NCBI GenBank assembly: GCA_965283675.1
Contig: CBDIPQ010000005.1
Location: 91,196 to 155,195 of the forward strand
From: Caulobacteraceae bacterium
GTDB taxonomy: Bacteria > Pseudomonadota > Alphaproteobacteria > Caulobacterales > Caulobacteraceae
Direction: 5' to 3'
DNA length: 64,000 nucleotides
Of this stretch, positions 42,212 to 62,010 are shown piece by piece. The notes under the pieces are model-generated. The model was not told the DNA's origin and did not search any database. It worked only from the letters and a program-made list of their open reading frames with translations. Numbering within the stretch: position 1 is the stretch's first letter; each line of letters starts with the position of its first letter. The position numbers were made by a program, and so were the translations under genes.

Positions 42212-42247
42212 GGCCCCGCCGATCCGTCGGCGGGGCCTCTTCTTGTT
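42212..42247. terminator. Intrinsic terminator between convergent receptor and acyl-CoA dehydrogenase genes
   Basis: 11-bp stem GGCCCCGCCGA-TCCG-TCGGCGGGGCC followed by TCTTCTTGTT. Confidence 0.8.
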
Positions 42248-45045: not shown

Positions 45046-46263
45046 ATGACCTACATCCTGGGCGGCTGGCAGTCGGACTTCGCGCGCAACTACGCCCGCG
45101 AGGGACTGGAGATCGGCGACGGCTTCGCGGAGGCCGTGCACGGCGCCCTGGCGGAGACGGGACTGGATCCGGAGGACATCGAGGTCGGCCACGTCGGCAA
45201 TTTCGTCGGCGACCTGTTCACGGGCCAGGGCATGCTGGGCGGCTTCTTCGCCATGGCGGACGAGCGGTTCACCGGCATGCCCGCGTCGCGCCATGAAGCG
45301 GCCTGCGCCTCGGGCAGCCTGGCCGTGCTGGCCGCCGCCGCCGACATCGAGGCGGGCCGCTACGGCACGGCGATGGTGCTGGGCATGGAGATGATGCGGA
45401 ATGTGCCGGGCGTGACGGCGGCCGAGCACCTGGGCGCCGCCGCCTGGGCCGGGCACGAGTATCTGGACGCGACCTATCCGTGGCCGCGCGCCTTCTCGGA
45501 CCTGACCGAGGAATACGATCGCCGCTACGGCATCGACGAACAGCATCTGCGCCGGATCGCGCAGGTCAATTTCGCCAACGCCAAGAACAACAAAAACGCC
45601 CAAACCAGAAAATACGAATTCACCGCCGCCAGCTTCAGCAATGATGACGAGGCCAATCCGGTGATCGAGGGGCGGGTGCGCAAGACCGACTGCGGTCAGG
45701 TGACGGACGGCGCCGCCGCCATCATCCTGGCCTCGCCGGAACGGGCCGCCGAATATGCGAAGGCGCGGGGCGTTCCGCTGGAGAGCCTGCCGCGCATCAA
45801 GGGCTGGGGCCACCGCTGCGCGCCGATCGACTATGGCCGCAAGATCAAGGCCAGCGAGGGGCAGCCCTATGTCTTCCCGCAGGTGAAGCGGGCCATCGAC
45901 GACGCCCGCGCCCGGGCCGGTCTGGACCTGTCGGGCATCGATGCGGTGGAGACCCACGACTGCTTCTCGATGACCGAGTACATGGCCATCGACCATCTGG
46001 GCCTGACCGCGCCGGGCGAGAGCTGGAAGGCGATCGAGGCGGGCGACATCGAGATGGGCGGCCGGCTGCCGATCAACCCGTCCGGCGGCCTGATCGGCTG
46101 CGGTCACCCGGTCGGGGCGACCGGGGTGCGAATGGCGCTGGACGCCTTCAAGCAGACGACCGGAACCGCGGGCGACATGCAGGTCGAGGGCGCGCGCAAT
46201 GTGCAGACGCTGAACATCGGCGGCTCGACCACGACGACGGTGAGCCTGGTGATCGGGACCTGA
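45046..46263 (+). CDS. SCP2-type thiolase / acetyl-CoA acetyltransferase
   Basis: RHEAACASG, VETHDCF, NPSGGLIGCGHPVGATG, NIGGS. Confidence 0.9.
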   Translation: MTYILGGWQSDFARNYAREGLEIGDGFAEAVHGALAETGLDPEDIEVGHVGNFVGDLFTGQGMLGGFFAMADERFTGMPASRHEAACASGSLAVLAAAADIEAGRYGTAMVLGMEMMRNVPGVTAAEHLGAAAWAGHEYLDATYPWPRAFSDLTEEYDRRYGIDEQHLRRIAQVNFANAKNNKNAQTRKYEFTAASFSNDDEANPVIEGRVRKTDCGQVTDGAAAIILASPERAAEYAKARGVPLESLPRIKGWGHRCAPIDYGRKIKASEGQPYVFPQVKRAIDDARARAGLDLSGIDAVETHDCFSMTEYMAIDHLGLTAPGESWKAIEAGDIEMGGRLPINPSGGLIGCGHPVGATGVRMALDAFKQTTGTAGDMQVEGARNVQTLNIGGSTTTTVSLVIGT

Positions 46264-46388: not shown

Positions 46389-47347
46389 TCAAAATCGTCC
46401 TGGTCTGCCAGCAGACGGCGGCAAAGGACGCCTGATGCTGCTGCTCAGGCCCAGCAGTCCCGACGTCGGAGCCGCCCCGACGATCACGAGAGGAACGCCG
46501 CCGAGGTCCATCACCGTCTCACCGATCTCGGCGCTTGGCGGATAAAGAACGGACGGTCCCACGATCCACGGAGAATGGGCCACATCCATCACCATGTCGC
46601 GCGTGGCCGTCCTAATCCGCACGGCATGGGGCCGGGCCGGCAGGAAACGGCATGTCGCCGGGCCGAGATCGGGACGGGGCAATACCACGCTGAGCAGGTT
46701 CTCGCCGACGCTGGGAACGCACATCGCCGTCTCGCGGATCGTTTCGGCAAAGCGCGTTTCGACCTCTTCGATGGTGCAGTTCAAGCCTCCCTCGCCGCGC
46801 AATGACGCGAAGCGCGCACGGAACGCCTCGGTCGAGAGGCGCGCCCCAATGCTGTGAAGCCGGAACTCCTGTCCCTTGGCCGGGCGGCGAGGCGAACGCC
46901 GCACCGTCGTGACGCCTTCCCGACGTTCGATCTCCATGACGATAGGCCGTGCGCCATGTCGCTGCCCCTGCCATCCGGCGAGGGTGAGGTATAGGCCGTG
47001 CTTATCGACCGCCGCGGAAGCCAACCCCTTGATCGCGTGTTCAAGATGGGCCGCGGCCTGGCCGATATCGCGAAGAACAGGCGCCGGGCCGAAACTCTTC
47101 GCGGGCCGCTTCCCGTCGGGGCCGCGAGGTATGGGGCCGCCCCATAAGTCCCGGCGATCCAGTCATCCATCGGCACATCACCGACATAGGCGACGCCGGA
47201 ATAGCCGATCGACACCAGCGCATCCCTGGCGCGGTAGACGATGGTCTTGTTGGACATGACGTCGTGGGGGGCAGGCCCCACCGTAACGAGACGGTCGCTG
47301 ACCTGGACTACATAGATCGGGCACATGGCCGTGAGGACAAGCGTCAT
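46389..47347 (-). CDS. Orphan protein with proteasome-beta/Ntn-hydrolase-like N-terminus; frameshift at about 47150-47152
   Basis: MTLVL...SDRL...NK gives T1/D17/K33 after Met removal; one extra G joins ORF 46781-47347 to the frame of ORF 46389-47024. Confidence 0.6.
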
Positions 47348-47492: not shown

Positions 47493-47975
47493 TCAGCGGG
47501 GAGAGCGGATCGACACCCCGACCGTGCCTTGCGCGATGACGAGGCCGTCGGGGGTGCTGATGGTCGCCTCGACCACGGCCTTGCGGGCGTCGTGGAAGGT
47601 CACCCGGCCGACCGTCTCCAGCCGGGCGCAGTCCATCGGGGCGGCGTTGAGGAAGCGCATCGACAGGTCGGTGGTCAGCAGGGTCTGGCCGGGCTCGAGA
47701 ATGGTCATGACGGCGCTGCCGCCCGCGACGTCCACCAGCGAGGCCAGGACCCCGCCGTGAACCAGACCCACGAAATTGGCGTGGCCGGGATCGAGATCGC
47801 AGACGATGCGGACCAGCCCTTCTTCGAACTCGACCGGCCAGGCGCCGAGCCGCTGCGGATAGCCGCCGACCGTGTCCGCCTTGCGCGCCCAGCGGCGCAG
47901 CAGTTCGAGGCCGGAAACGGTCGGGTCGAGCTCGAAGTCGACAGGCGCGACAACTCTGGCCGGAGCGGAGGTCAC
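47493..47975 (-). CDS. PaaI-family thioesterase (hotdog fold)
   Basis: HANFVGLVHGGVLASLVDVAGG, LTTDLSMRFL. Confidence 0.92.
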   Translation of the reverse strand: MTSAPARVVAPVDFELDPTVSGLELLRRWARKADTVGGYPQRLGAWPVEFEEGLVRIVCDLDPGHANFVGLVHGGVLASLVDVAGGSAVMTILEPGQTLLTTDLSMRFLNAAPMDCARLETVGRVTFHDARKAVVEATISTPDGLVIAQGTVGVSIRSPR

Positions 47976-48925
47976 GCCGCGGCCCCTTGTATCCGGCGGG
48001 CGCCCGTGCGGGTCTGGAAGCGGGCGATGGCGGCGTCGTATTCGCCGGACAGCTGGTCGACGATCTTGCTGACCGGCTCGACGGCGCGGACGGCCTCAAG
48101 CCCCTGGCCGGCGGCCCAGATATCGCGCCAGCGCTTGGTCGAGCCGCCCGAGGTGTAGTTGCGGTCCGGGGCGGCGCCGAGGTTGTCGGGATCCTGGCCG
48201 GCGGCCAGCAGGCTGGGGCGCAGCCACGAGGCCGGGGTGCCGGTGACCGAGGCGGAGACGACCAGATCGTCGGGACCCGCGTCCACGACCATCTGCTTGT
48301 ACTCCGGCTGGGCCATGCTCTCTTCGGAGGCCAGGAAGCGCGTCCCCATGTAGACGAAGTCCGCGCCCGCCGCGACGGCGCCGGCCACGCCCGCCCCATC
48401 GCCGATCCCGCCGCCGACCGCGATATAGCCGTCGAAGAAGTCGCGCACCGCCGAGATGAAGGCGAAGGGCGACAGGTGGCCGGTGTGGCCGCCGGCGCCG
48501 GCGCTGACGCAGGCCAGGCCGTCAACGCCCGCCTCGGCCGCCTTCTTCGCCAGCTTCATCGAGACGACGTCGGCGAAGACCAGGCCGCCGTAGCCCTTGA
48601 CCGTCTCCATGACCGGCTTCGGAGATCCGAGGGCGGTGATCACGACCGGCGGCTTGTATTCGGCGATCAGGCGCAGGTCCTCAGGGAGCCGGGCGTTGGT
48701 CGAGTGGGTGATCATGTTGGCGATCCACGGGGCGTCGCCCGGCTTCAGCGCGTCGGTGATCGTGCCCATCCACGCATCCAGGTCCTCGACCGTGCGGCAG
48801 TTGGGGGTGGGGAAGGCCCCGCCCACGCCGGCCCTGCAGGCGGCGATGACCAGTTCCGGCCCGCTGATCAGGAACATGGGCGCCGCGAATACGGGCAGGC
48901 GCAGGGTGTCGAAGGGGGAGGTCAT
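47972..48925 (-). CDS. Nitronate monooxygenase / FabK-like FMN oxidoreductase
   Basis: AAPMFLISG, AGAGGHTG, GGIGDG, YMGTRF; ATGA overlap fixes the start at 48925. Confidence 0.9.
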   Translation of the reverse strand: MTSPFDTLRLPVFAAPMFLISGPELVIAACRAGVGGAFPTPNCRTVEDLDAWMGTITDALKPGDAPWIANMITHSTNARLPEDLRLIAEYKPPVVITALGSPKPVMETVKGYGGLVFADVVSMKLAKKAAEAGVDGLACVSAGAGGHTGHLSPFAFISAVRDFFDGYIAVGGGIGDGAGVAGAVAAGADFVYMGTRFLASEESMAQPEYKQMVVDAGPDDLVVSASVTGTPASWLRPSLLAAGQDPDNLGAAPDRNYTSGGSTKRWRDIWAAGQGLEAVRAVEPVSKIVDQLSGEYDAAIARFQTRTGARRIQGAAA

Positions 48926-50640
48926 GCGGACAGGGTCTCGGTGGTGACGCGTTGGCGCAGATCCCGCTTGAGGATCTTGCCGACTGGATTGCGGGGGAGG
49001 GCCTCGATGGTCTCGAGGCGTTCGATCTGCTTGTAGACGGCGACCTGGCGGTCGCCGGTCAGGAAGGCGTTGATCTCGGCCAGGGTCGCTTGCTGGCCGG
49101 GACGGAAGACGACGAAGGCCGCGAGCCGCTCGCCCAGATTGGGATCCGGTGCGCCGACGACGGCGGCCTCGGCGACGGCGGGGTGGGCCATCAGGTGGTT
49201 CTCGATCTCCTCGGAGGAGATGTTCATGCCGCCGCGGATGATGATGTCCTTCAGCCGGCCGACGAATTTCAGGTGCTGCCTGCGGTCGCCGGCCAGCTCG
49301 AACAGGTCGCCGGTGCGGAACCAGCCGTCGGCGTCGAAGGCGCGGGCGTTGATCTCGGGCGCGCGCCAGTAGCCGGAGAAGATGGTGGCGCCCTTGACCC
49401 GCAGCTCGCCGGGCAGGCCGGCGTCGGTGATCTCCTGTTCGGTCTCGGGATCGACCAGGCGGGTGAAGATGCGGTCGTGCAGCTTGCAGGCCCATGTGAA
49501 GCCCTCGCCGAGGCGGGGGAACAGGCTGGCGCGGTCGGCGGCCTCGGGCAGGTCCTTCAGCGCCGACGGGAAGGAGGCCCCCTCGTTGGAGCCGAAATAG
49601 TTGACGATCTGGACCCCGTATTTTTCGTGGAAGGTCCGCACCATCCACTCCGACAGGGGCGCTGAGCCCGAGCCGATGGACTTCAGCCGCTTGAAGTCGA
49701 TGCCCTCCAGCAGGGCTTCGTTCTGGAGGAGCAGGTTCAGCACGGCGGGCGGGGCGACGGTGTAGTCGATCCTCTCGTCGCGCATCTGTTTGAGCAGGAC
49801 CTGCAGGTCGAACGGATGGTGCTGGATCAGCACCCCGCCGAGCAGCAGCCAGCCGATGAAGGCGGTGGAGATGCCGCCCATGTTGACCATCGGGAAGGGG
49901 TTCAGCAGGCGCGCGCCGGGGGCCAGGTCGGCGGCGTCGATGACGCCGTCGCCCATGATGATCCATTCGTTGTGGCTGCGCGGCACGCCCTTGGGCTGGG
50001 CCTCGGTGCCGGAGGTCCAGCAGATGGTGACGATGTCATCGGCGGTGATGGCCGCAGCCTTCGCCGCCTTCTGCGCGGCCTTGTGCTGGTCGCGGGTGAC
50101 GCCGTCCATCAAGGGCTCGAGGTCGAGACCGCCCTCGGGGCAGGTCTGGCCCAGGACGAAGACGGTCTTCAGGGTCGGGCAGGTCGCCTTGAGGCCGACG
50201 ATCATCTCGCCGTGCATCTGCTTGCCGATGCGGTCGTTGGTGATGGCGGCGACGGCGTCGGTCTGGCCGATGATGTAGCCCAGCTCGTGCTCGCGGTACT
50301 GGACCGGGGCGGGGCTGACGATGATCCCCAGCCGCAGGCAGGCCAGGTAGCTGATGGTCAGCTCGGCGATGTTGGGCAGCTGGACCACGACCACGTCGTC
50401 CTTGCGGATTCCATGGGCGGTCAGGACGGCGCAGAGGCGATCGACCGCGTCGGCGGTCTGGCGCCAGGTCAGGCGCTCGGCGGTCCCGCCGACGAAGTCC
50501 GGGGCGTTGAACGGATCGACCAGGGCCTCGGCGTCCGGATGGGCCTTCACATGCTTCTGGAACAGGTCGTCCAGGGTGACGTCGCCCCACCAGCCACGGG
50601 CCTTCATCTCGCGGATGCGGTGTTCGGGAATGACGATCAT
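48922..50640 (-). CDS. Acyl-CoA synthetase (cyclohexanecarboxylate/2,3-DHB-ligase-like)
   Basis: WTSGTEAQPKG, FGSNEG, WFRTGD, GRLKDIIIRGGMNI. Confidence 0.92.
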   Translation of the reverse strand: MIVIPEHRIREMKARGWWGDVTLDDLFQKHVKAHPDAEALVDPFNAPDFVGGTAERLTWRQTADAVDRLCAVLTAHGIRKDDVVVVQLPNIAELTISYLACLRLGIIVSPAPVQYREHELGYIIGQTDAVAAITNDRIGKQMHGEMIVGLKATCPTLKTVFVLGQTCPEGGLDLEPLMDGVTRDQHKAAQKAAKAAAITADDIVTICWTSGTEAQPKGVPRSHNEWIIMGDGVIDAADLAPGARLLNPFPMVNMGGISTAFIGWLLLGGVLIQHHPFDLQVLLKQMRDERIDYTVAPPAVLNLLLQNEALLEGIDFKRLKSIGSGSAPLSEWMVRTFHEKYGVQIVNYFGSNEGASFPSALKDLPEAADRASLFPRLGEGFTWACKLHDRIFTRLVDPETEQEITDAGLPGELRVKGATIFSGYWRAPEINARAFDADGWFRTGDLFELAGDRRQHLKFVGRLKDIIIRGGMNISSEEIENHLMAHPAVAEAAVVGAPDPNLGERLAAFVVFRPGQQATLAEINAFLTGDRQVAVYKQIERLETIEALPRNPVGKILKRDLRQRVTTETLSA

Positions 50641-52127
50641 GGGCGGACCTCCACGGCGAGATTGGCGTCGGGATAGAGCAGGCTGCGGACCTCGCCGCGC
50701 ACCACCTTGCCGACCGGGTTGCGGGGCAGGGCGGGCATGAGGTGCAGGCGTTTGGGCGTGCGGACGGGGCCGATGGCCTCGCGCACGAAGGCGCGGATGG
50801 CGGCGTCGTCAACGAAGCGGGCGTCGACGGCCACGGCGGCCTCCAGGCGCTCACCCCAGACGTCGTCGGGCAGGCCGAAGGCGCAGGCCTCGCGCACCGC
50901 CGGGTGGGCGTTCAGGGCGGCCTCGACCTCGCCGGGATAGACGTTGTAGCCGCCGGTGATGATCAGCTCCTTGGAACGGCCGATCAGGGTCAGGCGGCCG
51001 TCGGGGCCGATACGGCCGATGTCGCCGGTCTTCAGCCAGCCGTCGTGCCGGGTCGCCGCGGTCAGCTCGGGCGCGTCCAGGTATTCGGTGCGGGCCAGGT
51101 CGCCGCCGACCACCACCTCGCCTTCGCCGCGTGACAGCACCTGGCCCTCGCGGGTCAGCAGGCCGACGGGCGTGCCGGGGAAGGGACGGCCGACGGAGCC
51201 GCGCAGGTCAGGGTCAGCCATGTCGGCGGGGTTCTGGCCGGTGATGGCCATCGGCGCTTCGGTCTGGCCGTAGAGGGCCGACAGCACCGGGCCGAAGCGG
51301 CAGACCGCCTGGGCGATGCGGCCCGGCGACATGGGGGCGGCGGAATAGGTCAGGTGGCGCAGGCGCGGGAAGTCTTCGGGCCGGAAGTCGGTCTCGCCCA
51401 TCATCAGGGCGATCAGGGTGGGCGGCATGAAGACGACGGTGGTCCGGCGCTTCAGCTCATCGAGGATGGCGGCGCGGTCGGGCGTGGCCAGCAGGACGTG
51501 CGATCCGCCCGCCGCCAGCACCGGCAGGATGTAGTGGGACGAGCCGTGGGTCAGGGGCGCGACGGCCAGGTTCACGTCGTCGGCGGTGAAGTCGTAGAAG
51601 CCCTGCAGCGAGCGGAGGGCCGCCGCGCCGCTGGCCTGGGACTGGACCACGCCCTTGGGCACGCCGGTGGAGCCGCCGGTGAACTTCAGCGCGAAGGGGG
51701 CGGCCGGGTCGTCGAGGATCGCGGGCGGGGCGGCGTCGGGCAGGCTGTCCAGCCAGGCCTCGAGCGGCAGGGGGCGGGCGGTGGAGCCCAGCGCGCCGAC
51801 CGAGCCGACATCATGCAGGGTGAGAGCCAGGCTCGCGCGGCGCTGGAAGTCGCCATTCAGGCCTGCGCCGTTGCGGGGATTGAGCGGCGTCCACACCGCG
51901 TTGGCGCGCAGGATGGCGAGGTAGGCGACGACGTGGCGCCAGCTGTTGGCGGCGCACAGGCCGACGCGGTCGCCGGGCTGGATCCCGCGCGCGGTCAGGT
52001 CGGCGGCGGCGCGCTCGACCAGGGGGATCAGTTCGCCGTGGGTCAGGACCGTGTCGCCGTCGAACACGGCGGAGCGACCGGCCTTGGCGGCGGCGTTCTC
52101 GTAGAGGGCGCGGATCGGATGGGTCAT
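50637..52127 (-). CDS. Acyl-CoA synthetase (fatty-acid-CoA-ligase-like)
   Basis: FTGGSTGVPKG, YGQTE, WLKTGD, GRSKELIITGGYNVYP; ATGA overlap gives start 52127. Confidence 0.92.
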   Translation of the reverse strand: MTHPIRALYENAAAKAGRSAVFDGDTVLTHGELIPLVERAAADLTARGIQPGDRVGLCAANSWRHVVAYLAILRANAVWTPLNPRNGAGLNGDFQRRASLALTLHDVGSVGALGSTARPLPLEAWLDSLPDAAPPAILDDPAAPFALKFTGGSTGVPKGVVQSQASGAAALRSLQGFYDFTADDVNLAVAPLTHGSSHYILPVLAAGGSHVLLATPDRAAILDELKRRTTVVFMPPTLIALMMGETDFRPEDFPRLRHLTYSAAPMSPGRIAQAVCRFGPVLSALYGQTEAPMAITGQNPADMADPDLRGSVGRPFPGTPVGLLTREGQVLSRGEGEVVVGGDLARTEYLDAPELTAATRHDGWLKTGDIGRIGPDGRLTLIGRSKELIITGGYNVYPGEVEAALNAHPAVREACAFGLPDDVWGERLEAAVAVDARFVDDAAIRAFVREAIGPVRTPKRLHLMPALPRNPVGKVVRGEVRSLLYPDANLAVEVRP

Positions 52128-53353
52128 GCGGCCCGGCCTTCCAGGACGGTGACGACGGTGGCCGCCTCCTCGACGCCGAGGAAGCCGCCGCCGTTCTCGG
52201 CCACGGCGATGCGGGCGTCTCCGACCTGCCGCGCTCCGGCCTCGCCGCGCAGCTGGGTGGTCAGTTCGAACAACTGGGCGAGGCCCGTGGCGCCGACGGG
52301 ATGGCCCTTGGCGACGAGACCGCCGGAGGGGTTCACGGGTGTTCTGCCGCCCAGCGCGAAGTCGCCGGCCGCCGCGCGGGCGCCGACGGTTCCGGGTTCG
52401 GCGAGGCCCAGGTTCTCGATCTGCTGGAGCTCGGCGTAGCTGGTGGCGTCGTGGACCTCGGCCAGATCGATGTCCTGGGGGGCGACGCCCGCCTGTTCGT
52501 AGGCCGCCAGGGCGGCGCGGCGACCGATGTGGTTGTCGAAGTCGCGGGCGTCGCGAGCCCCGGCGCCGGCCAGGACGCAGCCCCGAATACGGACCGCGCG
52601 GGCCTCGCCGCCCAGCCGCTTGAGACCGCGCGCGGAGCAGACGACGGCGGCGGCGGCGCCGTCGCTGACCGGGGCGCACATGGCGCGGGTGAAGGGGAAC
52701 ACGATGGGCTTGTCGGCCAGCACCTGCTCCGCCGTCATCGGCGTGCGGTACTGGGAGCGGGGATTGTGCTGCGCCGCCGTGTGGTTCTTGGCCGCCAGCT
52801 GGGCGAGGTCGAGCTGGGTCGAGCCGAAGCGAGCCATGTGGGCGCGGGCCTGGGCGGCGTACAGGTCCATGAACAGGCTGCGGCCGTCCTCGGGAGCGTC
52901 TCCGCCCATGGCGCGGATGTAGTCGAGCACGCCCGCGCGATCGTGGATGTCCGTACCGCCGGCGAAAGCGGCCGCGACGCGGTCCGGGCGGTCGGGGAAG
53001 ACCATCTTCTCGACCCCGACGACGAGGGCGATGTCGCCCGCCCCGGCGCGGAGCCAGTGGACGGCCTGGAGCAGGGCGGTCGAGCCGGAGGCGCAGGCGT
53101 TCTCGACGTTGACGACGGGGACGCCGGTCAGACCGAGCGGACGCAGGGCGATCTGGCCGCGCACCGTGTTCTGACCCTCCAGCATGGGCTGGCGGGTGTT
53201 GGAGAACCAGGCCGCCTCGATGTCGGCGACGGTCGCGCCCGCGTCGGTCAGGGCCTCGGCGACGGCCTCGGCGGTCAGCGACTTGACGCTGTCGTCCGGC
53301 CGCTTGCCGAAGGCGGTCATGGAGACACCGGCGAGGAAGACGTCGTCGCTCAT
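52124..53353 (-). CDS. SCP2-type thiolase family protein
   Basis: NVENACASG, EVHDA, NPSGGLVAKGHPVGATG, ENGGG; ATGA overlap gives start 53353. Confidence 0.9.
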   Translation of the reverse strand: MSDDVFLAGVSMTAFGKRPDDSVKSLTAEAVAEALTDAGATVADIEAAWFSNTRQPMLEGQNTVRGQIALRPLGLTGVPVVNVENACASGSTALLQAVHWLRAGAGDIALVVGVEKMVFPDRPDRVAAAFAGGTDIHDRAGVLDYIRAMGGDAPEDGRSLFMDLYAAQARAHMARFGSTQLDLAQLAAKNHTAAQHNPRSQYRTPMTAEQVLADKPIVFPFTRAMCAPVSDGAAAAVVCSARGLKRLGGEARAVRIRGCVLAGAGARDARDFDNHIGRRAALAAYEQAGVAPQDIDLAEVHDATSYAELQQIENLGLAEPGTVGARAAAGDFALGGRTPVNPSGGLVAKGHPVGATGLAQLFELTTQLRGEAGARQVGDARIAVAENGGGFLGVEEAATVVTVLEGRAA

Positions 53354-55044
53354 GCGATCGGCCGCCGTCGCTGGACGATGCGGAAGCGCGAGGCGACGAA
53401 GGCCAGGTCGGCCAGGCAGGCGTTGCCCGCAGGGTTCAGGCCGGTGACGTGATAGTCGCTGTAGGCGGCGGCGAAATTGATCCACATCGCGCCGGTCAGA
53501 TTGATCGACAGATTGGCCCCGGCGGCCTCGTAGGCGGGGACGGCGCGGTCGATGAAGGCCTCGTCGGTCGAGTAGAGATAGGAGCTGATCGAGCCCCTGG
53601 TCCTGGCCAGCCAGGTCGCCTCCATCACCGCCTCGTCGGCGGGGCGGGAGACGAGGAAGAGGACCGGGCCGAAGCGTTCCTCGGCGTAGATCTCGGGATC
53701 GCCCGCGCCTTCGACCGCGATGACCAGCGGGGTCAGGGTGCGGGCGTCGGGGAACTGAGGGTGGGTGTAAGCGCCGGCCTCGCGCAGGACGCGGGCGCCC
53801 GGCGTGGCGTCGGCGGCGCGGCGGGCCTCGGCGACCACGTCGAGGCTGACCTGCCCCTGGATGGCGCCCATGATCCCGGCGGCCTGGGCCGGGTCGGCGG
53901 CGATGGCGTCAATCTGATCCACGATGGCCGAAGACATGGCCTCGAACAGGTCGGGCGCGATGTAGATCACCTGCGGGCTGGTGCACATCTGGGCCGAGAA
54001 CAGGCTGGAGGAGCGGGCGACGGCGCGGGCGACGGCGCCCAGGCCTGCTTGATTTTGGGGGACGCTGTCGATGACGACGGTGTTGACGCCCGCGGTCTCG
54101 GTGAACAGCAGCTTGCCGGTCACCGTCCGCTCCAGATGGCCGCCGTATCGGGGGCTTCCGGTGAAGTCGATGATCTGGACGTCCGGGTGGTCGATGAAGC
54201 GGCCCGCGACGGGCTCGGCCAGCGCATCCACGGCCAGGGTCACCAGGTTCGGATCGAAGCCGAAATCGGCCAGGACCTGACGGCAGGTCTCGACCACCAG
54301 GGCCATGGGCAGGACGGCGATGGGGTGCGGCTTGACGATGACCGGATTGCCCGTGGCCAGGCTGGCGAACATGGCCGGATAGGCGTTCCAGGTCGGGAAG
54401 GAGGCGCAGCAGATGACCAGGCCGACGCCGCGCGGGACCAGGGTGTAGGTCTTCCTCAGCGCCACCTGATCGGCGCCGAAGGGGCGGTGGTAGTCGGCGG
54501 TCGGCGTCACGTCGCGCATGGCCTTGGCGGCGTAGGCCAGCGCCTCGACGCCGCGGTCGAGCGCATTGGGGCCCGAGCCGCTGAAGGCCTGGGTGTAGCT
54601 TTGACCCGCCACATGCATGACCGCGTGGGCCATCTCGAAATTGCGGTCGTAGAGCCGCTGCGCCATCTCCAGGCACAGGGCGAGGCGGAGCTCGAAATCG
54701 ACCTCGCGCCACTGCGCCATGGCGGTGATGGCGGACGCCACCAGCGCGTCCGGGTCGCTGACCGGATAGCGGATGTCGAGGGGCTGCTGCGTATAGGGCG
54801 AGACCTCCTCGCCGACCGTGGCGCCGGTCGCGCCGGGCTGATCCAGGTCGAAGGTCGTTCCCAGCCGGGACTCGAAGGCGGCCTTGCCGGCGGGCGGCTT
54901 GTCCGGGCCGTGGATCTTCGTCGAGGGCAAGTCGCTGAACGGGCTCCAGGCCTGACGCGTGCGCACGGCCTGGATGGCGGCGTCCAGCGTCGCGGCGTGG
55001 CGCGCGATCAGTTCGGCGTGACGATCAAGCGGGCCCCCGTCCAT
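53350..55044 (-). CDS. paaN: PaaN-like aldehyde dehydrogenase
   Basis: QAFSGSGPNALDRGVEA, CASFPTWNAYP, FTETAGVN, catalytic QMCTSPQ, NFAAAYSDYHVTGLNPAGNA. Confidence 0.88.
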   Translation of the reverse strand: MDGGPLDRHAELIARHAATLDAAIQAVRTRQAWSPFSDLPSTKIHGPDKPPAGKAAFESRLGTTFDLDQPGATGATVGEEVSPYTQQPLDIRYPVSDPDALVASAITAMAQWREVDFELRLALCLEMAQRLYDRNFEMAHAVMHVAGQSYTQAFSGSGPNALDRGVEALAYAAKAMRDVTPTADYHRPFGADQVALRKTYTLVPRGVGLVICCASFPTWNAYPAMFASLATGNPVIVKPHPIAVLPMALVVETCRQVLADFGFDPNLVTLAVDALAEPVAGRFIDHPDVQIIDFTGSPRYGGHLERTVTGKLLFTETAGVNTVVIDSVPQNQAGLGAVARAVARSSSLFSAQMCTSPQVIYIAPDLFEAMSSAIVDQIDAIAADPAQAAGIMGAIQGQVSLDVVAEARRAADATPGARVLREAGAYTHPQFPDARTLTPLVIAVEGAGDPEIYAEERFGPVLFLVSRPADEAVMEATWLARTRGSISSYLYSTDEAFIDRAVPAYEAAGANLSINLTGAMWINFAAAYSDYHVTGLNPAGNACLADLAFVASRFRIVQRRRPIA

Positions 55045-55046
55045 GG

Positions 55047-56195
55047 TCAGCCGATCCGTTCGACGATCATGGCCGCGCCGACGCCCTGGGCGCCCGCCGC
55101 GACGACCAGGCCGTAGCGGCCCTCGGCGACGTCCAGCGCATCGAGCAGGGACGACAGCAGGATGGCGCCGGTCGCGCCCATCGGGTGCCCCTTGGCGAGG
55201 TGGCCGCCGCCGACGTTGACCCGGTCGACGTCCACGTCCCGCTCGCGCAGGAATTTCACGATGGTGACGGCGAAGGCCTCCATGAACTCGATGCGGTCCA
55301 TGTCGCCCAGCGTCAGTCCGGCCTTGGCGAGGGCCCGGTCCATGGCGGTGAAGCCGGCGGTCAGCGAGGCCTCGGGATCGCCCCCGGCCTCGGCGTAGGC
55401 GACGATCCGCGCGCGCGCGCCGTCGGCGGCGGCGCTGACCAGGGCCAGGCCGGCGCCGTCGCACATGGGCGGGGCGTGGGCGACGGTGTGGCGGTGGTCG
55501 ATGGTCCGGCCGCCCAGGGCCTCGGCGTACTGTTCGCCCAGCGGGGCGAAGGCGGCGGGCATGGCCGCAAGGCTTTCGGCTGTGGTCGAGGCGCGGGCGG
55601 GCTCTTCCCTGTCGAGACCGTTCAGGGGAATGCGCGACTTGGTCAGGGCCGTGCCCTCGGCGGCGGCGGTGCGCTGCTGCGAGCGCAGGGCGGCGTCGTC
55701 CATCTCCTGACGCGACACGCCGATGTCCTCGGCCAGGCGGTCGGCGGCGACCACGACGGGGATGTAACGGGTGCGCAGGGGGAAGCTGGCGTCCTCATAG
55801 TAGTCGGCCTTGTCGCCCATGAAGGGGACGCGGCTCATCATCTCGACCCCGCCCGCCAGCGCGGTCTTCGCATCCCCGGCGGCGATCATGTTGGCGGCCT
55901 GTCCGATCGCGGTCAGGCCCGAGACGCAGTAGTTGTTCAGGCTGAAGGCATAGGCGTCGTCGGGCAGGCCCGCGTGCATCTTGGTCACGAGGGCGACGTT
56001 GGCGCCCTGGGCCCCGACCTGGCCCACGGCGCCCAGGATCAGGGCGTCGGCCCTGTGCGCCGCGCCGCCGTTACGGGCGTCGAGCGCATCGATCAGACCG
56101 GCGACCAGTTCATGCGGCTTGAGGGACGCGAGGCCGCCGTCGGGGCGGGCCTTGGCGCGGGGCGTACGGACGGCGTCGACGATGTAAGCAGTCAT
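55047..56195 (-). CDS. Acetyl-CoA C-acyltransferase (thiolase)
   Basis: AYIVDAVRTP, NNYCVSG, NVGGGHLAKGHPMGATG; the C-terminal CxG cysteine is absent. Confidence 0.88.
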   Translation of the reverse strand: MTAYIVDAVRTPRAKARPDGGLASLKPHELVAGLIDALDARNGGAAHRADALILGAVGQVGAQGANVALVTKMHAGLPDDAYAFSLNNYCVSGLTAIGQAANMIAAGDAKTALAGGVEMMSRVPFMGDKADYYEDASFPLRTRYIPVVVAADRLAEDIGVSRQEMDDAALRSQQRTAAAEGTALTKSRIPLNGLDREEPARASTTAESLAAMPAAFAPLGEQYAEALGGRTIDHRHTVAHAPPMCDGAGLALVSAAADGARARIVAYAEAGGDPEASLTAGFTAMDRALAKAGLTLGDMDRIEFMEAFAVTIVKFLRERDVDVDRVNVGGGHLAKGHPMGATGAILLSSLLDALDVAEGRYGLVVAAGAQGVGAAMIVERIG

Positions 56196-56203
56196 ACTGA
56201 TCC

Positions 56204-57673
56204 TCAGGCGGCGACTTGTGCGCCGGGCGCCCAGGTCCCGTGGAAGCCGGCGGGCACGCGGGCGGGCAAGGGAATGCGGGCGATAGGGCCGGCCTCGAAA
56301 TCCTTGGCCGCGATGACCTGGACCTCGGAGGCGCCCGTGGCCTCGTCGGTGGTGAAGACGATGACGTAGCCGTCGTCTTCGTCGACCGCGCCGACGCGGG
56401 GGGCGAAGGCGGGCTCCGAGCCGCCGACGCCGGGCGCGAAGTCATGCGTCTTCGCCGCGCCGGTGTTGAGGTCGTACTTGATCAGGCCCGAGAAGCGCTG
56501 CAGTTCCTGCTTCGCCATCGAGACATGGTAGGACCAGTTCGTCTTGCGGCCGGTGTAGTCGAGGTTGACCACCGGGAACTCGCCGATGCGGTCGTCCAGC
56601 CGGCGCTTCTTCACCTCGCCCGTGACCATGTTCATGCGCCACTCGACCGGCACGGCGTTCAGCGCCAGCACATTGACCATCGAGGCGTAGGGGCCATAGG
56701 CCGGGTTCGGCGGATAGCCGTTCGGCGTCATCATGCAGGCGGTCATGACGACCTCGTCGCCGTCCTCCCAGGCGTTGACGACGTGGTAGATGTAGCAGGT
56801 CTCGGTTTCGAACCAGCGGACCTGATCGCCCTTGCCGTTCTTGGGGACGACGCCGAAGCGGGCGGGCTGGTCGGCCACCTTGATCTGCCACATCGAGTTG
56901 CGCAGTCCGGCCTCGGTGAAGACCACCGGGAGGTCGTGCAGGATGATGTAGTTCTCGGTCAGGCCCATGTCGTGCGGCAGGCGCGGTCCGGGCAGGTCGA
57001 CCTTCTGGAAATTGGTCAGGTTGTTCTGGGCATCGACCACGCCGAAGGTCATCCACGGCTCGTAGAGCGAATAGTCGAAGAAGCAGAACTCGCCGGTCTT
57101 GGGATCGACCTTGCCGTGGGCCGAGACGTGGCGGGGCAGGGCGCCGCCGAAGGTCTCGTTGCCGATCGTCTCCAGGGTGTTGGCGTGGACCCGCACCGGC
57201 TTGCCCGAGATGTACCAGAGCGCCATCAGCGAGCCGTTGTGGAAGACCAGATCGGTGTTGGCCGTGTCCTTGTAGACGAGGTCGCCGCGCTGCGACCCCG
57301 GACGGGTCCGCGCCGAGGGGGCCATGACCCCGCCCGCGTGGATGTCGAGCCCGGCCTTTTCGGCGCGGTAGTCGTCGGTTCCGACATAGCGGTTGCGGTA
57401 TTCGGCCTTGCCGTTCTCGAACCAGATGGCGTGGACCATGCCGTCGCCGTCGAACCAGTGATGCAGGCCCGCCGGCGCCTGGGCCGGGTTGGGACCATTG
57501 CGCACGAAGGCGCCGTACAGGTCTTTGGGAATCTCGCCGATGACGGGCAGGTCCAGCGCCGTCGTCTCGGTCGCCACAGGCTCGTAGAGGCCCTGCAGAT
57601 AGGGGTTCAACTGGTTCAGCGGGGTGAGTTCACCGGTCTCGATCCGGCGCGCCGCGGTCGCGTCATCGGCCAT
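56204..57673 (-). CDS. Carotenoid-cleavage-oxygenase (RPE65/CCO) family dioxygenase 2
   Basis: RNGPNP, HWFDGDGM, YRNRYV; His motifs SAHGK, PHDM, IYHV, GFHGTW. Confidence 0.93.
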   Translation of the reverse strand: MADDATAARRIETGELTPLNQLNPYLQGLYEPVATETTALDLPVIGEIPKDLYGAFVRNGPNPAQAPAGLHHWFDGDGMVHAIWFENGKAEYRNRYVGTDDYRAEKAGLDIHAGGVMAPSARTRPGSQRGDLVYKDTANTDLVFHNGSLMALWYISGKPVRVHANTLETIGNETFGGALPRHVSAHGKVDPKTGEFCFFDYSLYEPWMTFGVVDAQNNLTNFQKVDLPGPRLPHDMGLTENYIILHDLPVVFTEAGLRNSMWQIKVADQPARFGVVPKNGKGDQVRWFETETCYIYHVVNAWEDGDEVVMTACMMTPNGYPPNPAYGPYASMVNVLALNAVPVEWRMNMVTGEVKKRRLDDRIGEFPVVNLDYTGRKTNWSYHVSMAKQELQRFSGLIKYDLNTGAAKTHDFAPGVGGSEPAFAPRVGAVDEDDGYVIVFTTDEATGASEVQVIAAKDFEAGPIARIPLPARVPAGFHGTWAPGAQVAA

Positions 57674-57712: not shown

Positions 57713-57734
57713 CCGGTCCGTTTGTGCAAGTCAT
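57713..57734 (-). promoter_or_regulatory. Cluster-wide operator motif copy
   Basis: ATGACTTGC ACAAAC GGACCGG, 40 bp upstream of dioxygenase 2. Confidence 0.62.
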
Positions 57735-58645
57735 GATAGGCGCACGGCGGTCGCCGGACGGGCCTTCAGGAAGGCCTCGAAGGCGGCGTTTCCGTCGGTC
57801 GGCAGGGTCCAGTCCTCGAGCGACATCAGCGGGCCCATGGCCGCGGTCAGGTCGTCAGGAGAGACTTCGCCCGGCGGATCGAACTGGACGCCGGGACCCT
57901 CGATCCGGACGGCGCGGCGGACCTTGCCGGCGCCCGCCACCAGGGTCTCGCCGTTCAGCGGGCAGGCCGCGGTCATCAGCCAGCTGACCACCGGGGCGAC
58001 GTATTCGGGCGGCATGGCCTGGCCGACCTCGTCGGTGACATAGGCCTCGGTCATGCCGGTCAGGGCGTAGGGGGCGACGGCGTTGGCGTGCACGCCCCTG
58101 GAGGCGCCTTCCAGGGCGATGACCCGCATCAGGCCGATCAGCGCCGCCTTGGACGAGGAATAGGCGGCCATGCCGTGCACCCCGTGCAGGCCGGCCGCGG
58201 AGGTGGTGATGGCGATCCGCCCCGCGCCCTGGTCGCGCATGTGGCGGTAGATCGGCAGGGTGGCGCTGACCGTGCCGAAGAAGTTGATGTCGAAGACGGC
58301 CCGCAGCTCGGCCAGGGTCTGTTTGTGCAGGCTTCTGGCTTCGGGAGCGCCGGCGTTGTTCACCAGCCCGTCGATGCGGCCGAAGGCGGCGAGGGCGGCC
58401 TCCAGCAGGCGGTCTCCGGCGTCATCCTGTTCGACCCCGAGCGCGCAGGCGACGGCTTCGCCGCCGGCGGCCCGGATTCGCTCGACCACGGCCTCGGCCG
58501 AGGCCGGCTGGCCCGACGGGCGGGGCCGGGTGTTGACCACCACCTTCGCCCCGCGGGACGCCAGATCCAGCGCATAGGCCAGGCCCAGGCCGCGCCCGGC
58601 GCCCGTGACCACGATGACCCGGTCCTTCAACGACCGCTGTTCCAT
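57731..58645 (-). CDS. SDR-family oxidoreductase (MFE-2 3-hydroxyacyl-CoA-dehydrogenase-like)
   Basis: TGAGRGLG, NNAG, GLHG...YSSSK; GGAGGG RBS favours start 58645. Confidence 0.9.
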   Translation of the reverse strand: MEQRSLKDRVIVVTGAGRGLGLAYALDLASRGAKVVVNTRPRPSGQPASAEAVVERIRAAGGEAVACALGVEQDDAGDRLLEAALAAFGRIDGLVNNAGAPEARSLHKQTLAELRAVFDINFFGTVSATLPIYRHMRDQGAGRIAITTSAAGLHGVHGMAAYSSSKAALIGLMRVIALEGASRGVHANAVAPYALTGMTEAYVTDEVGQAMPPEYVAPVVSWLMTAACPLNGETLVAGAGKVRRAVRIEGPGVQFDPPGEVSPDDLTAAMGPLMSLEDWTLPTDGNAAFEAFLKARPATAVRLS

Positions 58646-58654
58646 CCGCCCCTC

Positions 58655-58676
58655 CATGCTTGCGTAAAAAGACTTG
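58655..58676 (+). promoter_or_regulatory. Cluster-wide operator motif copy
   Basis: CATGCTTGC GTAAAA AGACTTG in the divergent SDR/receptor gap. Confidence 0.55.
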
Positions 58677-58681: not shown

Positions 58682-58703
58682 TTGGTCCGTTGGCGCAAGT
58701 TAC
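58682..58703 (-). promoter_or_regulatory. Cluster-wide operator motif copy
   Basis: GTAACTTGC GCCAAC GGACCAA, inverted relative to the copy at 58655. Confidence 0.65.
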
Positions 58704-58759: not shown

Positions 58760-60958
58760 ATGAAGTTCGTTCACGCCACAACCGCCTCCGTCGCCGCCCT
58801 GATGCTGGGGGCCGCGCTCGCCGCGCCCGCCGCCGCGCAGGAGGCGCCGCCGCAGGACGCCGCCACCCTCGACGAGGTGATCGTCACGGCGCAGCGCCGC
58901 GAGCAGAGCCTGCAGGACGTGCCGATCGCCATCACCGCCTTCAACGCCGAGACGCTGGAGCGCACGGCGGCGACAGGCATCCAGGACATCGCGGCCAAGG
59001 CGCCGGGCGTGACCCTGACCCAGTTCAACATCGGCGAGCCGCAGCTCTACATCCGCGGCGTCGGGTCCTCGAGCAACTCGGCGGCCAGCGATCCCTCGAT
59101 CGGCGTCTCCATCGACGAGGTGTCGATCGGCCGGTCGGGCGCCAGCGCCCTGGCCTTCCTCGACATCGAACGGGTCGAGGTCCTGCGCGGGCCGCAGGGG
59201 ACGCTGTACGGCCGTAACGCCTCAGGCGGGGCGCTGAACATCTACACCCGCAAGCCGGTCTTCCAGAACACCGGCAGCCTGACGGCCCGGATCGGCAGCT
59301 TCGACGAGTACGGGCTCGAAGGGGTGGTGAACCGCCAGCTGGACGACGAGACCGCGATCCGCTTCGCCGCCCGCTACAACACCAACGACGGCTATGCCGA
59401 GAACGTCCCGACCGGCCGGGGGCTGGAGGGCGGAACGTCCTTGGGCGCGCGCGTGTCGGTGCTGAAGGAGGCGGGCGAATGGAGCCTCCTGCTGAGCGGC
59501 GACTATTCGAAGGACGACATGGACGGGCACGCCCGCATCCCGGTCACGACCTCGGCCACCGCGCCGGCCTTCGTCACCCTGATCAATACCCTGCGGACGG
59601 GCCTGGACCGGCGGCAGAGCTTCTCGTCGCCGGACAACTATCAGGACCGCACCAATTTCGGCGTGACGGCGCGGGTCGAGCATTCCGGCCAGGCGTTCGA
59701 CTTCGTCTCCCTGACCTCGTTCCGGGACAACGACTACAGCTGGCGGGACAATCTGGGCGGCCTGCCGTTCCCGGCCTTCCCGCTGGAGGTGGACGACCGG
59801 GCCTCGGAGAAGGCGCGCCAGTTCAGCCAGGAGTTCCGGCTGGCGTCCAAGCCGGGATCCGACATCAACTGGGTCGCCGGCGCCTATGTGTTCCAGGAAG
59901 ACATCCTGCGGAGCGAGCGCTTCATCGTGAACACGGCGCTGCCCATCGCGCCGCCGTCGTTCGGCGGCGACACCACCTTCATCCAGGATGCGACCAACCG
60001 CAGCTTCGCCGTCTTCGGCCAGGCCAACATCCCGTTCGCGGACATCTGGGAGCTGACGCTGGGCGCCCGGTGGACGCATGACAAGCGCGAGATCCACCAG
60101 ATCGCGATCGACAACGAGGGCGGCGCCAATCCGCCTCCGGGCATTCCGCTGGGGCCGGGCGGCGCGCCCTACAACGTCAGCGGCGACGAGAGCTTCAGCG
60201 AGCCGAGCTGGAAGATCGCCCTGGCGGTCGAGCCGGTCGACAACGTGCGCCTCTACGCCAGCTATGACCGGGGCTACAAGGCGGGGGCCTTCCCGTCGAC
60301 GGCCCAGTCCGGCGCCCAGGCGCTGACGCCGCTCGCGTCGGAACTGCTCGACAACTACGAGATCGGGGTGAAGTCGACCCTGATGGGCCGGCTGCGCTTC
60401 AACGCGGCGGCGTTCAAGCTCGAGTACACCGACCTGCAGGTCTATGAGCTGCTGGGACTGGCGCTGGTCACCTCCAACGCCCAGGCCGAGGTGGACGGGT
60501 TCGAGATCGAGACCGCCCTGGCGATCACCAACAACCTGACCATCGGCGGCTCGTACACCAGCCTGGATGCGAAGTTCACGTCGAACGCCGCATCGGGCGC
60601 GCTGGTCCTGCCCTACAACGGCAACACCCTGCCGCGGTCGCCGGACAGCCAGTACACCCTGTACATCGACAGCGAATGGGACGTGGCCGGCGGCGTGCTG
60701 GCGGCGCGGGCCGACTATCAGTGGACCGACGCCTTCTACTTCGATCCGTCGAACAACCCCGAGGTCCTGTCGCCGGAGCACGAGCTGGTCAGCGCCTTCC
60801 TGTCGTGGGAGTCGCCGTCGGGCCTGAAGATCTCGGCCTACGGCAAGAACCTGACGGACACCGAGTACCAGACCCACATCATCAAGAACGTGGGCGTGGG
60901 CTTCAGCGTCTTCGGGGCGCCGCGCTCTTTCGGCGTGGCCCTGAGCCAAAGCTTCTAG
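58760..60958 (+). CDS. TonB-dependent receptor
   Basis: GGGGAGG RBS, signal peptide, DEVIVTAQRRE, ERVEVLRGPQGTLYGRN, terminal F. Confidence 0.95.
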   Translation: MKFVHATTASVAALMLGAALAAPAAAQEAPPQDAATLDEVIVTAQRREQSLQDVPIAITAFNAETLERTAATGIQDIAAKAPGVTLTQFNIGEPQLYIRGVGSSSNSAASDPSIGVSIDEVSIGRSGASALAFLDIERVEVLRGPQGTLYGRNASGGALNIYTRKPVFQNTGSLTARIGSFDEYGLEGVVNRQLDDETAIRFAARYNTNDGYAENVPTGRGLEGGTSLGARVSVLKEAGEWSLLLSGDYSKDDMDGHARIPVTTSATAPAFVTLINTLRTGLDRRQSFSSPDNYQDRTNFGVTARVEHSGQAFDFVSLTSFRDNDYSWRDNLGGLPFPAFPLEVDDRASEKARQFSQEFRLASKPGSDINWVAGAYVFQEDILRSERFIVNTALPIAPPSFGGDTTFIQDATNRSFAVFGQANIPFADIWELTLGARWTHDKREIHQIAIDNEGGANPPPGIPLGPGGAPYNVSGDESFSEPSWKIALAVEPVDNVRLYASYDRGYKAGAFPSTAQSGAQALTPLASELLDNYEIGVKSTLMGRLRFNAAAFKLEYTDLQVYELLGLALVTSNAQAEVDGFEIETALAITNNLTIGGSYTSLDAKFTSNAASGALVLPYNGNTLPRSPDSQYTLYIDSEWDVAGGVLAARADYQWTDAFYFDPSNNPEVLSPEHELVSAFLSWESPSGLKISAYGKNLTDTEYQTHIIKNVGVGFSVFGAPRSFGVALSQSF

Positions 60959-61920: not shown

Positions 61921-62010
61921 GAGCCCTCGTTTCAATCCTGCTTCGGACCCTGTCTAGCACTCCGGACACTAAATCGCAGGTCCGGTGACGCAAGGGCGTG
62001 ATCAGGGCGA

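Follow-up and report, generated by a model that had tools for sequence, protein, structure and literature searches.

A PaaN-like aldehyde dehydrogenase in a Caulobacteraceae operon headed by a carotenoid cleavage oxygenase: a conserved module that may break down (apo)carotenoids

What is an aldehyde dehydrogenase (ALDH) that resembles PaaN, an enzyme of phenylacetate catabolism, doing in an operon headed by a carotenoid cleavage oxygenase (CCO)? The question is raised by a 64-kb stretch of a Caulobacteraceae genome (GenBank assembly GCA_965283675.1, contig CBDIPQ010000005.1, positions 91,196 to 155,195), hereafter the window, whose own coordinates are used throughout and whose G+C content is ca. 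68%. A preliminary description of this DNA had proposed that PaaN was recruited here to oxidise the aldehyde made by the CCO, feeding the ligases and thiolases encoded next to it. Our reading, to which we give a probability of roughly 0.55, is that the eight minus-strand genes at 47493-57673 form a single translationally coupled catabolic operon under HxlR-type regulation, and that this operon would be the core of a Brevundimonas locus for the uptake and breakdown of a hydrophobic compound whose C=C bonds are conjugated, most likely a carotenoid or apocarotenoid.

The ALDH gene (53350-55044) encodes a protein of 564 aa (Aldedh, E 1.9e-36) that matches the PaaN_2 model TIGR02288 from end to end, with a score of 550.1 bits that does not reach the equivalog cut-off of 578.75. 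Its nearest solved structure is a Burkholderia ALDH (5UJU, 458 bits), and the catalytic residues Asn220, Glu316 and Cys354 are present and invariant in an alignment that includes 5UJU, which is the residue set of hydrolytic aldehyde oxidation. The nearest relatives are proteins of Brevundimonas and other Caulobacterales (73-99% identity), most of the Brevundimonas orthologues being named at NCBI only “aldehyde dehydrogenase family protein”; the exact sequence of the window ALDH had no record in the contig index. The chromosome of Brevundimonas sp. NIBR11 carries two copies of the CCO-linked ALDH type (P0056 and P0079, 79% and 81% identical to the window ALDH), so that a single genome can contain the module in duplicate.

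One genome per species was scanned with a family-wide alignment, and the best 80 loci with their 10-kb flanks, plus two further loci from contig look-ups (82 in total, 70 of them of the non-paa type), were searched by tblastn with all the window proteins and the Paa proteins of E. coli K-12. Homologues that are 47-99% identical to the window ALDH adjoin genes coding for CCOs, NMO-family flavin mononucleotide (FMN) oxidoreductases, a type I/II thiolase-like protein (ThlA), SCP2-type thiolases, a 572-aa acyl-coenzyme A (CoA) ligase, HxlR regulators and DUF1295 proteins, and those that are 42-48% identical are found inside paaABCDE, paaFGHIJK or paaY clusters. A CCO without paa genes was found in 42 of the 53 loci that are at least 15 kb long and paa genes without a CCO in nine, two having neither and none both; core paa genes (paaA, B, C, G, K and Y) are present within 10 kb in 0/70 of the non-paa loci. 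In a neighbor-joining (NJ) tree, the paa-linked proteins make up one clade and the group of the window ALDH (23 sequences) another, both with 100/100 bootstrap support, and 5UJU sides with the paa-linked proteins, sharing 52-69% identity with them and no more than 48% with those linked to CCOs. The proposed connection between the ALDH and the CCO was therefore borne out (42 loci with only the CCO, none with both), but the recruitment of a PaaN was not. The separate clade, the identity of 42-48% and the score below the TIGR02288 cut-off speak against an orthologue of PaaN that moved, and the phylogeny against paa-cluster PaaNs that had been suggested as a check places the window ALDH outside the paa clade, as a distinct enzyme dedicated to the CCO context. 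Given the clade split, the identity, the gene context and the lack of paa genes, we place it in the PaaN_2 family without regarding it as a PaaN; its separate clade, score and neighbors indicate that its substrate must also differ from that of PaaN.

When the tree was rooted with the ALDH domain of E. coli PaaZ, the paa clade was again monophyletic (98/100), and the CCO-linked sequences were paraphyletic (monophyletic in 1/100 replicates), with the paa clade nested among them. This gives a weak hint, from NJ with one distant outgroup, that recruitment went in the reverse direction and the paa enzyme was derived from CCO-linked stock. All 43 plasmid-borne homologues have at most 44% identity to the window ALDH, and most of those listed are annotated as paaN, as in pSTY of Pseudomonas sp. 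VLB120, where the plasmid paaN is accompanied by a complete paa set. Since the plasmid collection shows only these canonical paaN homologues, nothing suggests that the module is also carried on plasmids. Within the window, the earlier observation that no other core paa gene is present stands: Pfam annotation of the larger open reading frames (ORFs) revealed no paa genes, and tblastn with E. coli PaaA-K, X, Y and Z detected no homologues of PaaA-I, K, X or Y, just generic thiolase and ALDH similarity. Four sequencing runs in which the window is present do contain contigs resembling paaA and paaK of a canonical paa locus (L080) at 80-85% likeness. However, the samples are mixed, with as many as 10 million contigs in a run, and the paa contigs do not match the window locus in depth, so that they are not assignable to the genome of the window.

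All the ORFs of the 70 non-paa loci were clustered into families. The most frequent were the ALDH itself (56 loci), the CCOs (46 loci and 57 genes, often two or three per locus), the NMO-family enzyme (36 loci, 47-77% identity), the 572-aa ligase (33 loci, the ligase that is kept throughout the module) and ThlA (31 loci), followed by SCP2-type thiolases of the kind we call ThlSCP2 (24 loci), HxlR regulators (21 plus 6, i.e., at least 27 loci), those of the kind we call ThlSCP (16 loci), a 496-aa ligase (12 loci, restricted to the sub-lineage of the window and a few others), DUF1295 proteins (11 loci) and a short-chain dehydrogenase/reductase (SDR) similar to MFE-2 (10 loci). Freshwater, soil and marine sources are represented among the loci, which belong to Alpha-, Beta- and Gammaproteobacteria, Actinomycetota and Myxococcota, and the coupling of CCO and ALDH is thus conserved across several phyla. 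In 36 CCO-linked loci (among L020, L022 and L028-L067; e.g., L036, 9558-10022), a gene coding for a Lipocalin_5 protein (PF13924, ca. 150 aa) adjoins the ALDH gene, which suggests a hydrophobic ligand. No lipocalin gene was found in the window, and within its clade only L020 and L056 have one, ThlA being located upstream of the ALDH elsewhere in the clade. Locus L036 is labelled as a metagenome-assembled genome (MAG) of Bordetella parapertussis, and the taxon labels of metagenomic bins in the locus table need caution.

The operon itself was delimited by ORF calling guided by the G+C content of third codon positions (GC3) and start mapping, with domains taken from Pfam and NCBIfam, and the coordinates and domain content of the eight genes given in the preliminary description were reproduced. 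In the direction of transcription, on the minus strand, these are CCO1 (56204-57673, 489 aa; RPE65, E 1.6e-125, 420 bits), ThlA (55047-56195, 382 aa; Thiolase_N/C matches), the ALDH, an SCP2-type thiolase-like protein (ThlSCP; 52124-53353, 409 aa; Thiolase_C_1), the 496-aa ligase (50637-52127; AMP-binding and AMP-binding_C), the 572-aa ligase (48922-50640; AMP-binding), a FabK-like FMN oxidoreductase of the NMO family (47972-48925, 317 aa; NMO, 83.8 bits) and, as the final gene, a hotdog-fold 4HBT thioesterase (47493-47975, 160 aa; 4HBT, E 8e-12). The tight coupling reported before was also found, with gaps of 8 and 2 nt at the first two junctions and then five overlaps of 4 nt (four ATGA and one GTGA). 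The same order of eight genes is kept in Brevundimonas/Caulobacterales loci (L003, L006, L008, L011, L012 and L021) and in Stappia taiwanensis (L017). The order is kept, too, in a MAG labelled Bordetella sp. (L016), the genes of which are 70-82% identical to the Brevundimonas operon; with this identity and gene order, it is probably mis-binned. No indel separates the operon sequence (47.3-57.7 kb) from three assemblies made independently for the same species. The eight genes are a real unit, as claimed earlier, but merely part of a single large catabolic locus of at least 35 kb that runs from ca. 28.6 kb to the right end of the window.

An operator copy had been described at the head of the unit, and our analysis agrees. 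The box CTTGCACAAACGGACC (57715-57730, minus strand), an exact motif match, immediately follows the stop codon of the SDR gene upstream and precedes the CCO1 start by 42 nt, and seven related loci (L003, L004, L006, L008, L011, L012 and L021) have a related box, (A/G)CTTGC...GAC(C), at a distance of 45-100 nt upstream from their CCO1 orthologue. As it is kept whether an SDR or an HxlR gene precedes, the box marks the head of the unit from CCO1 to the thioesterase. Another exact match, CTTGCGCCAACGGACC (58684-58699, minus strand), is found where the SDR gene and a TonB-dependent receptor gene diverge, inside a longer conserved stretch with CTTGC/GCAAG half-sites, CTTGCGCCAAC(G/A)GACCA..TTTGCAAGTCTTT(T/C)TACGCAAG, that is kept in L003, L004 and L006. 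A third box with two mismatches (61979-61994, minus strand) is intergenic, between an HxlR gene and the third CoA-ligase gene. Altogether, the window contains nine motif matches against 2.4 expected, a number reached in 0/100 shuffles. The candidate binder of these boxes would be the product of that HxlR gene (60955-61935, minus strand), a 326-aa regulator with two HxlR-type winged-helix domains (two matched stretches); HxlR-type regulators are known to sense aldehydes or electrophiles. A second regulator of the locus (35511-36452, 313 aa) is likewise a fusion of two HxlR-type domains, and this two-domain form recurs beside the module in many phyla. A scan of 46.2-59.0 kb for consensus promoters and terminators gave nothing above chance, and is uninformative for this organism.

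Besides CCO1, the locus codes for a second oxygenase, CCO2 (43570-45033, plus strand), ca. 40% identical to it and heading a convergent two-gene unit; CCO2 orthologues (59-64% identity) are found in beta- and gammaproteobacterial loci. Both match the RPE65 profile (PF03055) over its whole length, with 420 bits for CCO1 and 407 for CCO2, and the histidines of the motifs AH(P/G)KVD, PHD, (Y/V)xxH and (F/T)H align with those of plant CCD1. Three of the iron-binding His columns are >95% conserved among the 57 locus CCOs and three references, the fourth His being recovered in pairwise alignments only. The best NCBIfam match of both is the apocarotenoid dioxygenase of the Rv0654 type (297 and 238 bits against a cut-off of 675), and the nearest solved structure of CCO1 is a plant carotenoid 9,10-dioxygenase (9M6Z, 269 bits), ahead of VP14 and LsdA. 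For both CCOs, the plant 9,10-dioxygenase scores above lignostilbene dioxygenases (LSDs), all the matches being remote. In vitro, CCOs of non-photosynthetic bacteria (MtCCO, NACOX1, SaCCO and PpCCO) cleave (apo)carotenoids, at positions from 9,10 to 15,15′ (PMC5133782). The window CCOs resemble these enzymes in that their best match is the model of the Rv0654 type (Rv0654 being MtCCO), but they are well below its cut-off and the likeness is through the profile model only.

How could such a set of enzymes work together? We infer the following order of steps. The substrate would be imported by a TonB-dependent receptor, and CCO1 and CCO2 would cut its double bonds, with aldehydes or dialdehydes and ketones as the products. 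The PaaN-family ALDH would convert the aldehyde hydrolytically to a carboxylate (its substrate possibly being an omega-formyl acyl-CoA, by analogy with that of PaaN), and the 572-aa and 496-aa ligases would make the CoA thioesters. The FabK-like FMN enzyme would then reduce the conjugated enoyl or dienoyl thioesters. It is a member of the NMO family (PF03060) for which a FabK-like function is suggested by its nearest structures, FabK 5GVJ and 7L00 (94 bits), ahead of nitronate monooxygenases (45 bits or less), with 110 bits to the FabK equivalog TIGR03151, below the cut-off of 453. The methyl-branched chain would be shortened by an MFE-2-like SDR (57731-58657, minus strand; adh_short, E 1.2e-45) and the thiolase-fold proteins. 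The SDR gene lies 57 nt upstream of CCO1 on the same strand, at a position that varies among relatives, and the nearest structures of its product are the (3R)-hydroxyacyl-CoA dehydrogenase of yeast MFE-2 (2ET6, 279 bits) and human HSD17B4; its first ATG is not conserved in L003, so the true start is probably the second one, at 58645. Finally, the hotdog thioesterase (above the cut-off for TIGR00369, with a PaaI match of merely E 5e-4) would release or proof-read CoA esters.

Carotenoids or apocarotenoids are favored as substrates because the receptor, CCOs, ALDH, ligases, reductase, dehydrogenase and SCP2 thiolases together fit a hydrophobic, conjugated and methyl-branched chain. Excentric cleavage would yield ionone-type ketones and polyene (di)aldehydes, and oxidation and CoA activation of the latter would produce 4-methyl- or 2-methyl-branched polyenoyl-CoAs, whose shortening would release acetyl-CoA and propionyl-CoA alternately. 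This scheme is drawn from the known carotenoid skeleton and the substrate preference of the mammalian MFE-2/SCPx pair. SCPx, the mammalian peroxisomal SCP2-type thiolase, acts on 2-methyl-branched 3-oxoacyl-CoAs, and the MFE-2 dehydrogenase and SCPx are the pair for 2-methyl-branched acyl-CoAs. The window resembles this peroxisomal branched-chain beta-oxidation in having an SDR nearest to the MFE-2 dehydrogenase and two SCP2-type thiolase-fold proteins, but there is no MaoC hydratase-2 partner in the window and the SCP2 homologue within the operon has HDAT instead of HDCF.

The thiolase-fold proteins deserve closer description. ThlA keeps the CVS and GHP motifs, has MEAF for NEAF and an Ala in place of the C-terminal acid/base Cys, and does not have the full set of four type I/II fingerprints (CxS, NEAF, GHP and CxG, with both catalytic Cys). 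At the CxG window, where E. coli PaaJ has CIG, 10/31 orthologues have AGA, 8/31 have CGA (Cys kept) and the remainder vary; the nearest solved structures are 3SVK of M. avium and FadA (Rv0859) of M. tuberculosis. ThlSCP keeps CAS and GHP, and HDAT replaces HDCF in 16/16 orthologues with the loss of the acid/base Cys; its nearest solved structures are the SCP2-thiolase 6HSJ and BbsB (7PXP). A canonical SCP2-type thiolase is present in the locus, ThlSCP2 (45046-46263, plus strand), paired with CCO2, scoring 643 bits against a cut-off of 375 for NF004936, and with CAS, HDCF and GHP intact in 24/24 orthologues. Thus, in the clade of the window, the ALDH gene is flanked by two Cys-deficient thiolase-fold genes (ThlA-ALDH-ThlSCP), and it is conceivable that their products form a complex with the ALDH or carry out a non-classical C-C cleavage. 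The conserved loss of this Cys in both, together with the lack of a hydratase, suggests a chemistry beyond textbook beta-oxidation.

Several points weigh against our reading. ThlA and ThlSCP may not be ordinary thiolases, their acid/base Cys being missing, and no crotonase or MaoC hydratase was found in the 64 kb, so a full beta-oxidation cycle is not encoded locally. For these two reasons, the earlier suggestion that the products feed the ligases and thiolases is plausible but incomplete. The likeness of the 572-aa ligase (cyclohexanecarboxylate-CoA ligase of NCBIfam, 279 bits, below the cut-off; nearest solved structures, aryl-acid adenylating enzymes) is as compatible with a cyclic acid as with a polyene acid. 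The CCOs have ca. 30% identity to any characterised enzyme, and their assignment to carotenoids comes from the ranking of best hits and the absence of stilbene-type residues (see below). The 82 loci, being those most similar to the query, are a biased sample. A search for evidence of co-transcription revealed no usable RNA-seq run for the organism, none of the RNA runs containing it beyond 15% of sampled words.

The alternative that survives best, still unlikely in our opinion, uses the same enzymes in a different order, with the ligase acting first. A polyene or alkenoic acid would be activated, the CCO would cut the acyl-CoA to an omega-formyl (enoyl-)CoA, the PaaN-like ALDH would oxidise this CoA-semialdehyde, and the FabK-like reductase and thiolases would finish the short CoA-diacid, with the released aldehyde re-entering in an iterative chopping that needs no hydratase. 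The idea derives from the action of canonical PaaN on an omega-formyl acyl-CoA and from the absence of a hydratase in the window; the product names in the E. coli annotation likewise have PaaN and PaaZ using a CoA-thioester semialdehyde, and ThlA adjoins the ALDH as the chemistry of PaaJ follows that of PaaN. In addition, Burkholderiales versions of the module contain sequences similar to Bug-type binding proteins and LIV-type ABC transporters (assigned to families by inspection), suggesting the import of an acid. However, several compact Burkholderiales versions have no orthologue of the 572-aa ligase within 10 kb (L031, L032, L036, L048 and L058), we know of no CCO that accepts CoA thioesters, and the scheme is wholly inferential.

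Less probable still is some other hydrophobic unsaturated substrate unrelated to carotenoids, such as isoprenoid or polyene natural products, oxidised polyisoprenoid fragments or aryl polyenes. The remoteness of the CCOs from characterised enzymes, with 269 bits for the best solved structure, leaves room for it, and the NTF2-like (SnoaL/LEH) proteins, the DUF1295 membrane reductase-like protein and the several SDRs in the locus suggest cyclic or oxygenated terpenoid moieties. On the other hand, the characterised enzymes of the CCO family act on carotenoids, apocarotenoids or stilbenoids (PMC8191317, PMC5133782), and the stilbenoid signature is absent from the locus CCOs.

This signature bears directly on the proposal, improbable to us, that the module degrades 4-hydroxystilbenes or 4-hydroxystyrenes (lignostilbene, resveratrol or isoeugenol), with CCOs of the LSD type and an ALDH acting on vanillin-like aldehydes. 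LSD models do score 216-250 bits on the CCOs, CCOs of Caulobacter and other bacteria that convert isoeugenol or 4-vinylguaiacol are known, and the 572-aa ligase is nearest to enzymes activating aryl acids. We compared the 57 CCOs of the ALDH-linked loci with an LSD reference sequence rebuilt from the alignment of 5V2D, which we take to be LSD. In LSD, Tyr-101 and Lys-134 form hydrogen bonds with the 4-hydroxyl of the substrate (PMC8191317). CCO1 has Val and Tyr at these positions and CCO2 Leu and Tyr; among the aligned residues of the locus CCOs, the Tyr position is I/L/V in 48/51 and Tyr in 2/51, and the Lys position is Tyr in 51/52, Phe in 1/52 and never Lys. This replacement makes a stilbenoid substrate unlikely, and, moreover, the LSD scores are lower than those of the carotenoid type and no aromatic ring-cleavage or demethylase genes are found in the locus. 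Finally, a genuine phenylacetate PaaN, acting on the 3-oxo-5,6-dehydrosuberyl-CoA semialdehyde made by paa genes elsewhere, with an incidental position in this operon, is very improbable, since the TIGR02288 score that is merely 29 bits under the cut-off, the PaaN name carried by some orthologues in their sources and the paa-like contigs of the mixed runs, unassignable at their mismatched depths, are outweighed by the separate paa clade, by 5UJU and the plasmid homologues, which group with that clade or are at most 44% identical to the window ALDH, and by the lack of core paa genes in the window and around its 70 relatives.

With (apo)carotenoid breakdown as the preferred reading, the module can be set beside known systems. 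It shares with PaaN (TIGR02288; pSTY paaN, 5UJU) the ALDH subfamily, with full-length identity of 41-48% and the same catalytic Asn/Glu/Cys, and with the phenylacetate catabolon an adjacent thiolase gene (PaaJ-like chemistry) and a PaaI-like hotdog thioesterase; it differs in its score below the curated cut-off, its separate clade, its CCO and NMO neighbors and the lack of paaABCDE, G, K and Y. A CCO followed by an ALDH is a known succession, in which an oxygenase with iron held by four His cuts a C=C bond to aldehydes that an NAD(P)+-dependent ALDH turns into acids. Animals use BCO1 and then retinal dehydrogenase, and plants a carotenoid cleavage dioxygenase (CCD) and then an ALDH, yielding crocetin or mycorradicin. 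In bacterial lignin-dimer catabolism, LSD is followed by an aromatic aldehyde dehydrogenase (PMC8191317). Unlike in those pairs, the window ALDH belongs to the PaaN_2 family. The pair is, besides, embedded in a coupled operon with ligases, a FabK-like reductase and thiolase-fold proteins, which suggests full catabolism rather than the production of a signal or pigment.

The rest of the locus includes, in addition to CCO2 with its SCP2 thiolase, an acyl-CoA dehydrogenase, two TonB receptors, the two tandem-HxlR regulators, a major facilitator superfamily (MFS) transporter, three more ligases, and DUF1295, SDR and NTF2-like (SnoaL/LEH) genes. The acyl-CoA dehydrogenase (42247-43434, minus strand; Acyl-CoA_dh N, M and C domains) is divergent from CCO2, next to which it is also found in L003. 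One TonB-dependent receptor (58760-60958, plus strand; Plug and TonB_dep_Rec barrel), divergent from the SDR and CCO genes, starts with a signal peptide and keeps its position in L001, L003, L004, L006 and L012. An acyl-CoA synthetase of 602 aa (62090-63898, plus strand; AMP-binding; PRK12582, 626 bits, below the cut-off) is conserved in the Brevundimonas loci. Outside the operon, assemblies made independently for this species (runs X3 and X5, contig L002) have 1-2 nt that the window lacks at each of 33286-33601, 37877, 39898, 40435, 43935-43945 and 47146. The missing nucleotides split or truncate an AMP-ligase (33.0-34.5 kb) and a second ligase (N terminus of 36484-37863) and disrupt the other TonB receptor (39.5-42.2 kb) and a 319-aa hypothetical protein (46389-47347), and the CCO2 gene has a net 3 nt fewer in the window than in the other assemblies. 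These sites are probably assembly indels; that the truncated neighbors are pseudogenes was considered and dropped.

The first 28 kb of the window are occupied by metal-efflux genes and an insertion sequence (IS) element. A heavy-metal resistance region (1-23300), unrelated to the operon, contains two CzcCBA-like efflux sets of the resistance-nodulation-division (RND) type (1-5516 and 16112-21777), two cation-diffusion facilitators, a P-type ATPase fragment, and DUF305 and HupE/UreJ genes. It is followed by a transposase of the IS4/IS5 family (DUF4096, apparently in two frames, 27133-27890) and a tRNA-like 3′ fragment (28576-28638) that is below the threshold (Rfam tRNA, 22.6 bits against 29); ARAGORN found no tRNA in the 64-kb window. 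The G+C content is lower (0.63) at 22-30 kb. Transposase, tRNA-like fragment and G+C dip together have the appearance of an integrated island's edge, lying between the metal-resistance genes and the catabolic locus.

Carotenoids are among the most abundant natural pigments, and yet their mineralisation by bacteria appears, to our knowledge, to be poorly understood; nor do we know of an established physiological role for the CCOs of non-photosynthetic bacteria. Our literature searches turned up neither this combination of genes nor any catabolic cluster for carotenoids in bacteria, only in vitro work with CCOs and lignin-stilbene pathways. A tentative and bolder proposal, clearly less likely than our general reading, is that this module would be the first genetically defined bacterial route that mineralises the polyene backbone of carotenoids, a widespread one, in which two or three CCOs would cut the chain, a PaaN-family ALDH (with a lipocalin-like carrier in many lineages) would oxidise the (di)aldehydes or formyl-acyl-CoAs, and Cys-deficient thiolase-fold proteins and a FabK-like reductase would take apart the methyl-branched polyenoyl-CoA, with no classical hydratase. 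If this were true, many phenylacetate clusters may owe their PaaN to recruitment from an older CCO-linked family, and the orphan CCOs of non-photosynthetic bacteria would gain a physiological role. In any case, this CoA-dependent catabolic module initiated by a CCO is widespread and mis-annotated, and apparently uncharacterised. Hundreds of proteins labelled as PaaN or as phenylacetic acid degradation enzymes, in Brevundimonas and in numerous further genera, probably belong to another pathway, an annotation trap that can now be corrected, and, as CCO genes are common in non-photosynthetic bacteria, the module provides concrete genes and enzymes with which to test their role.

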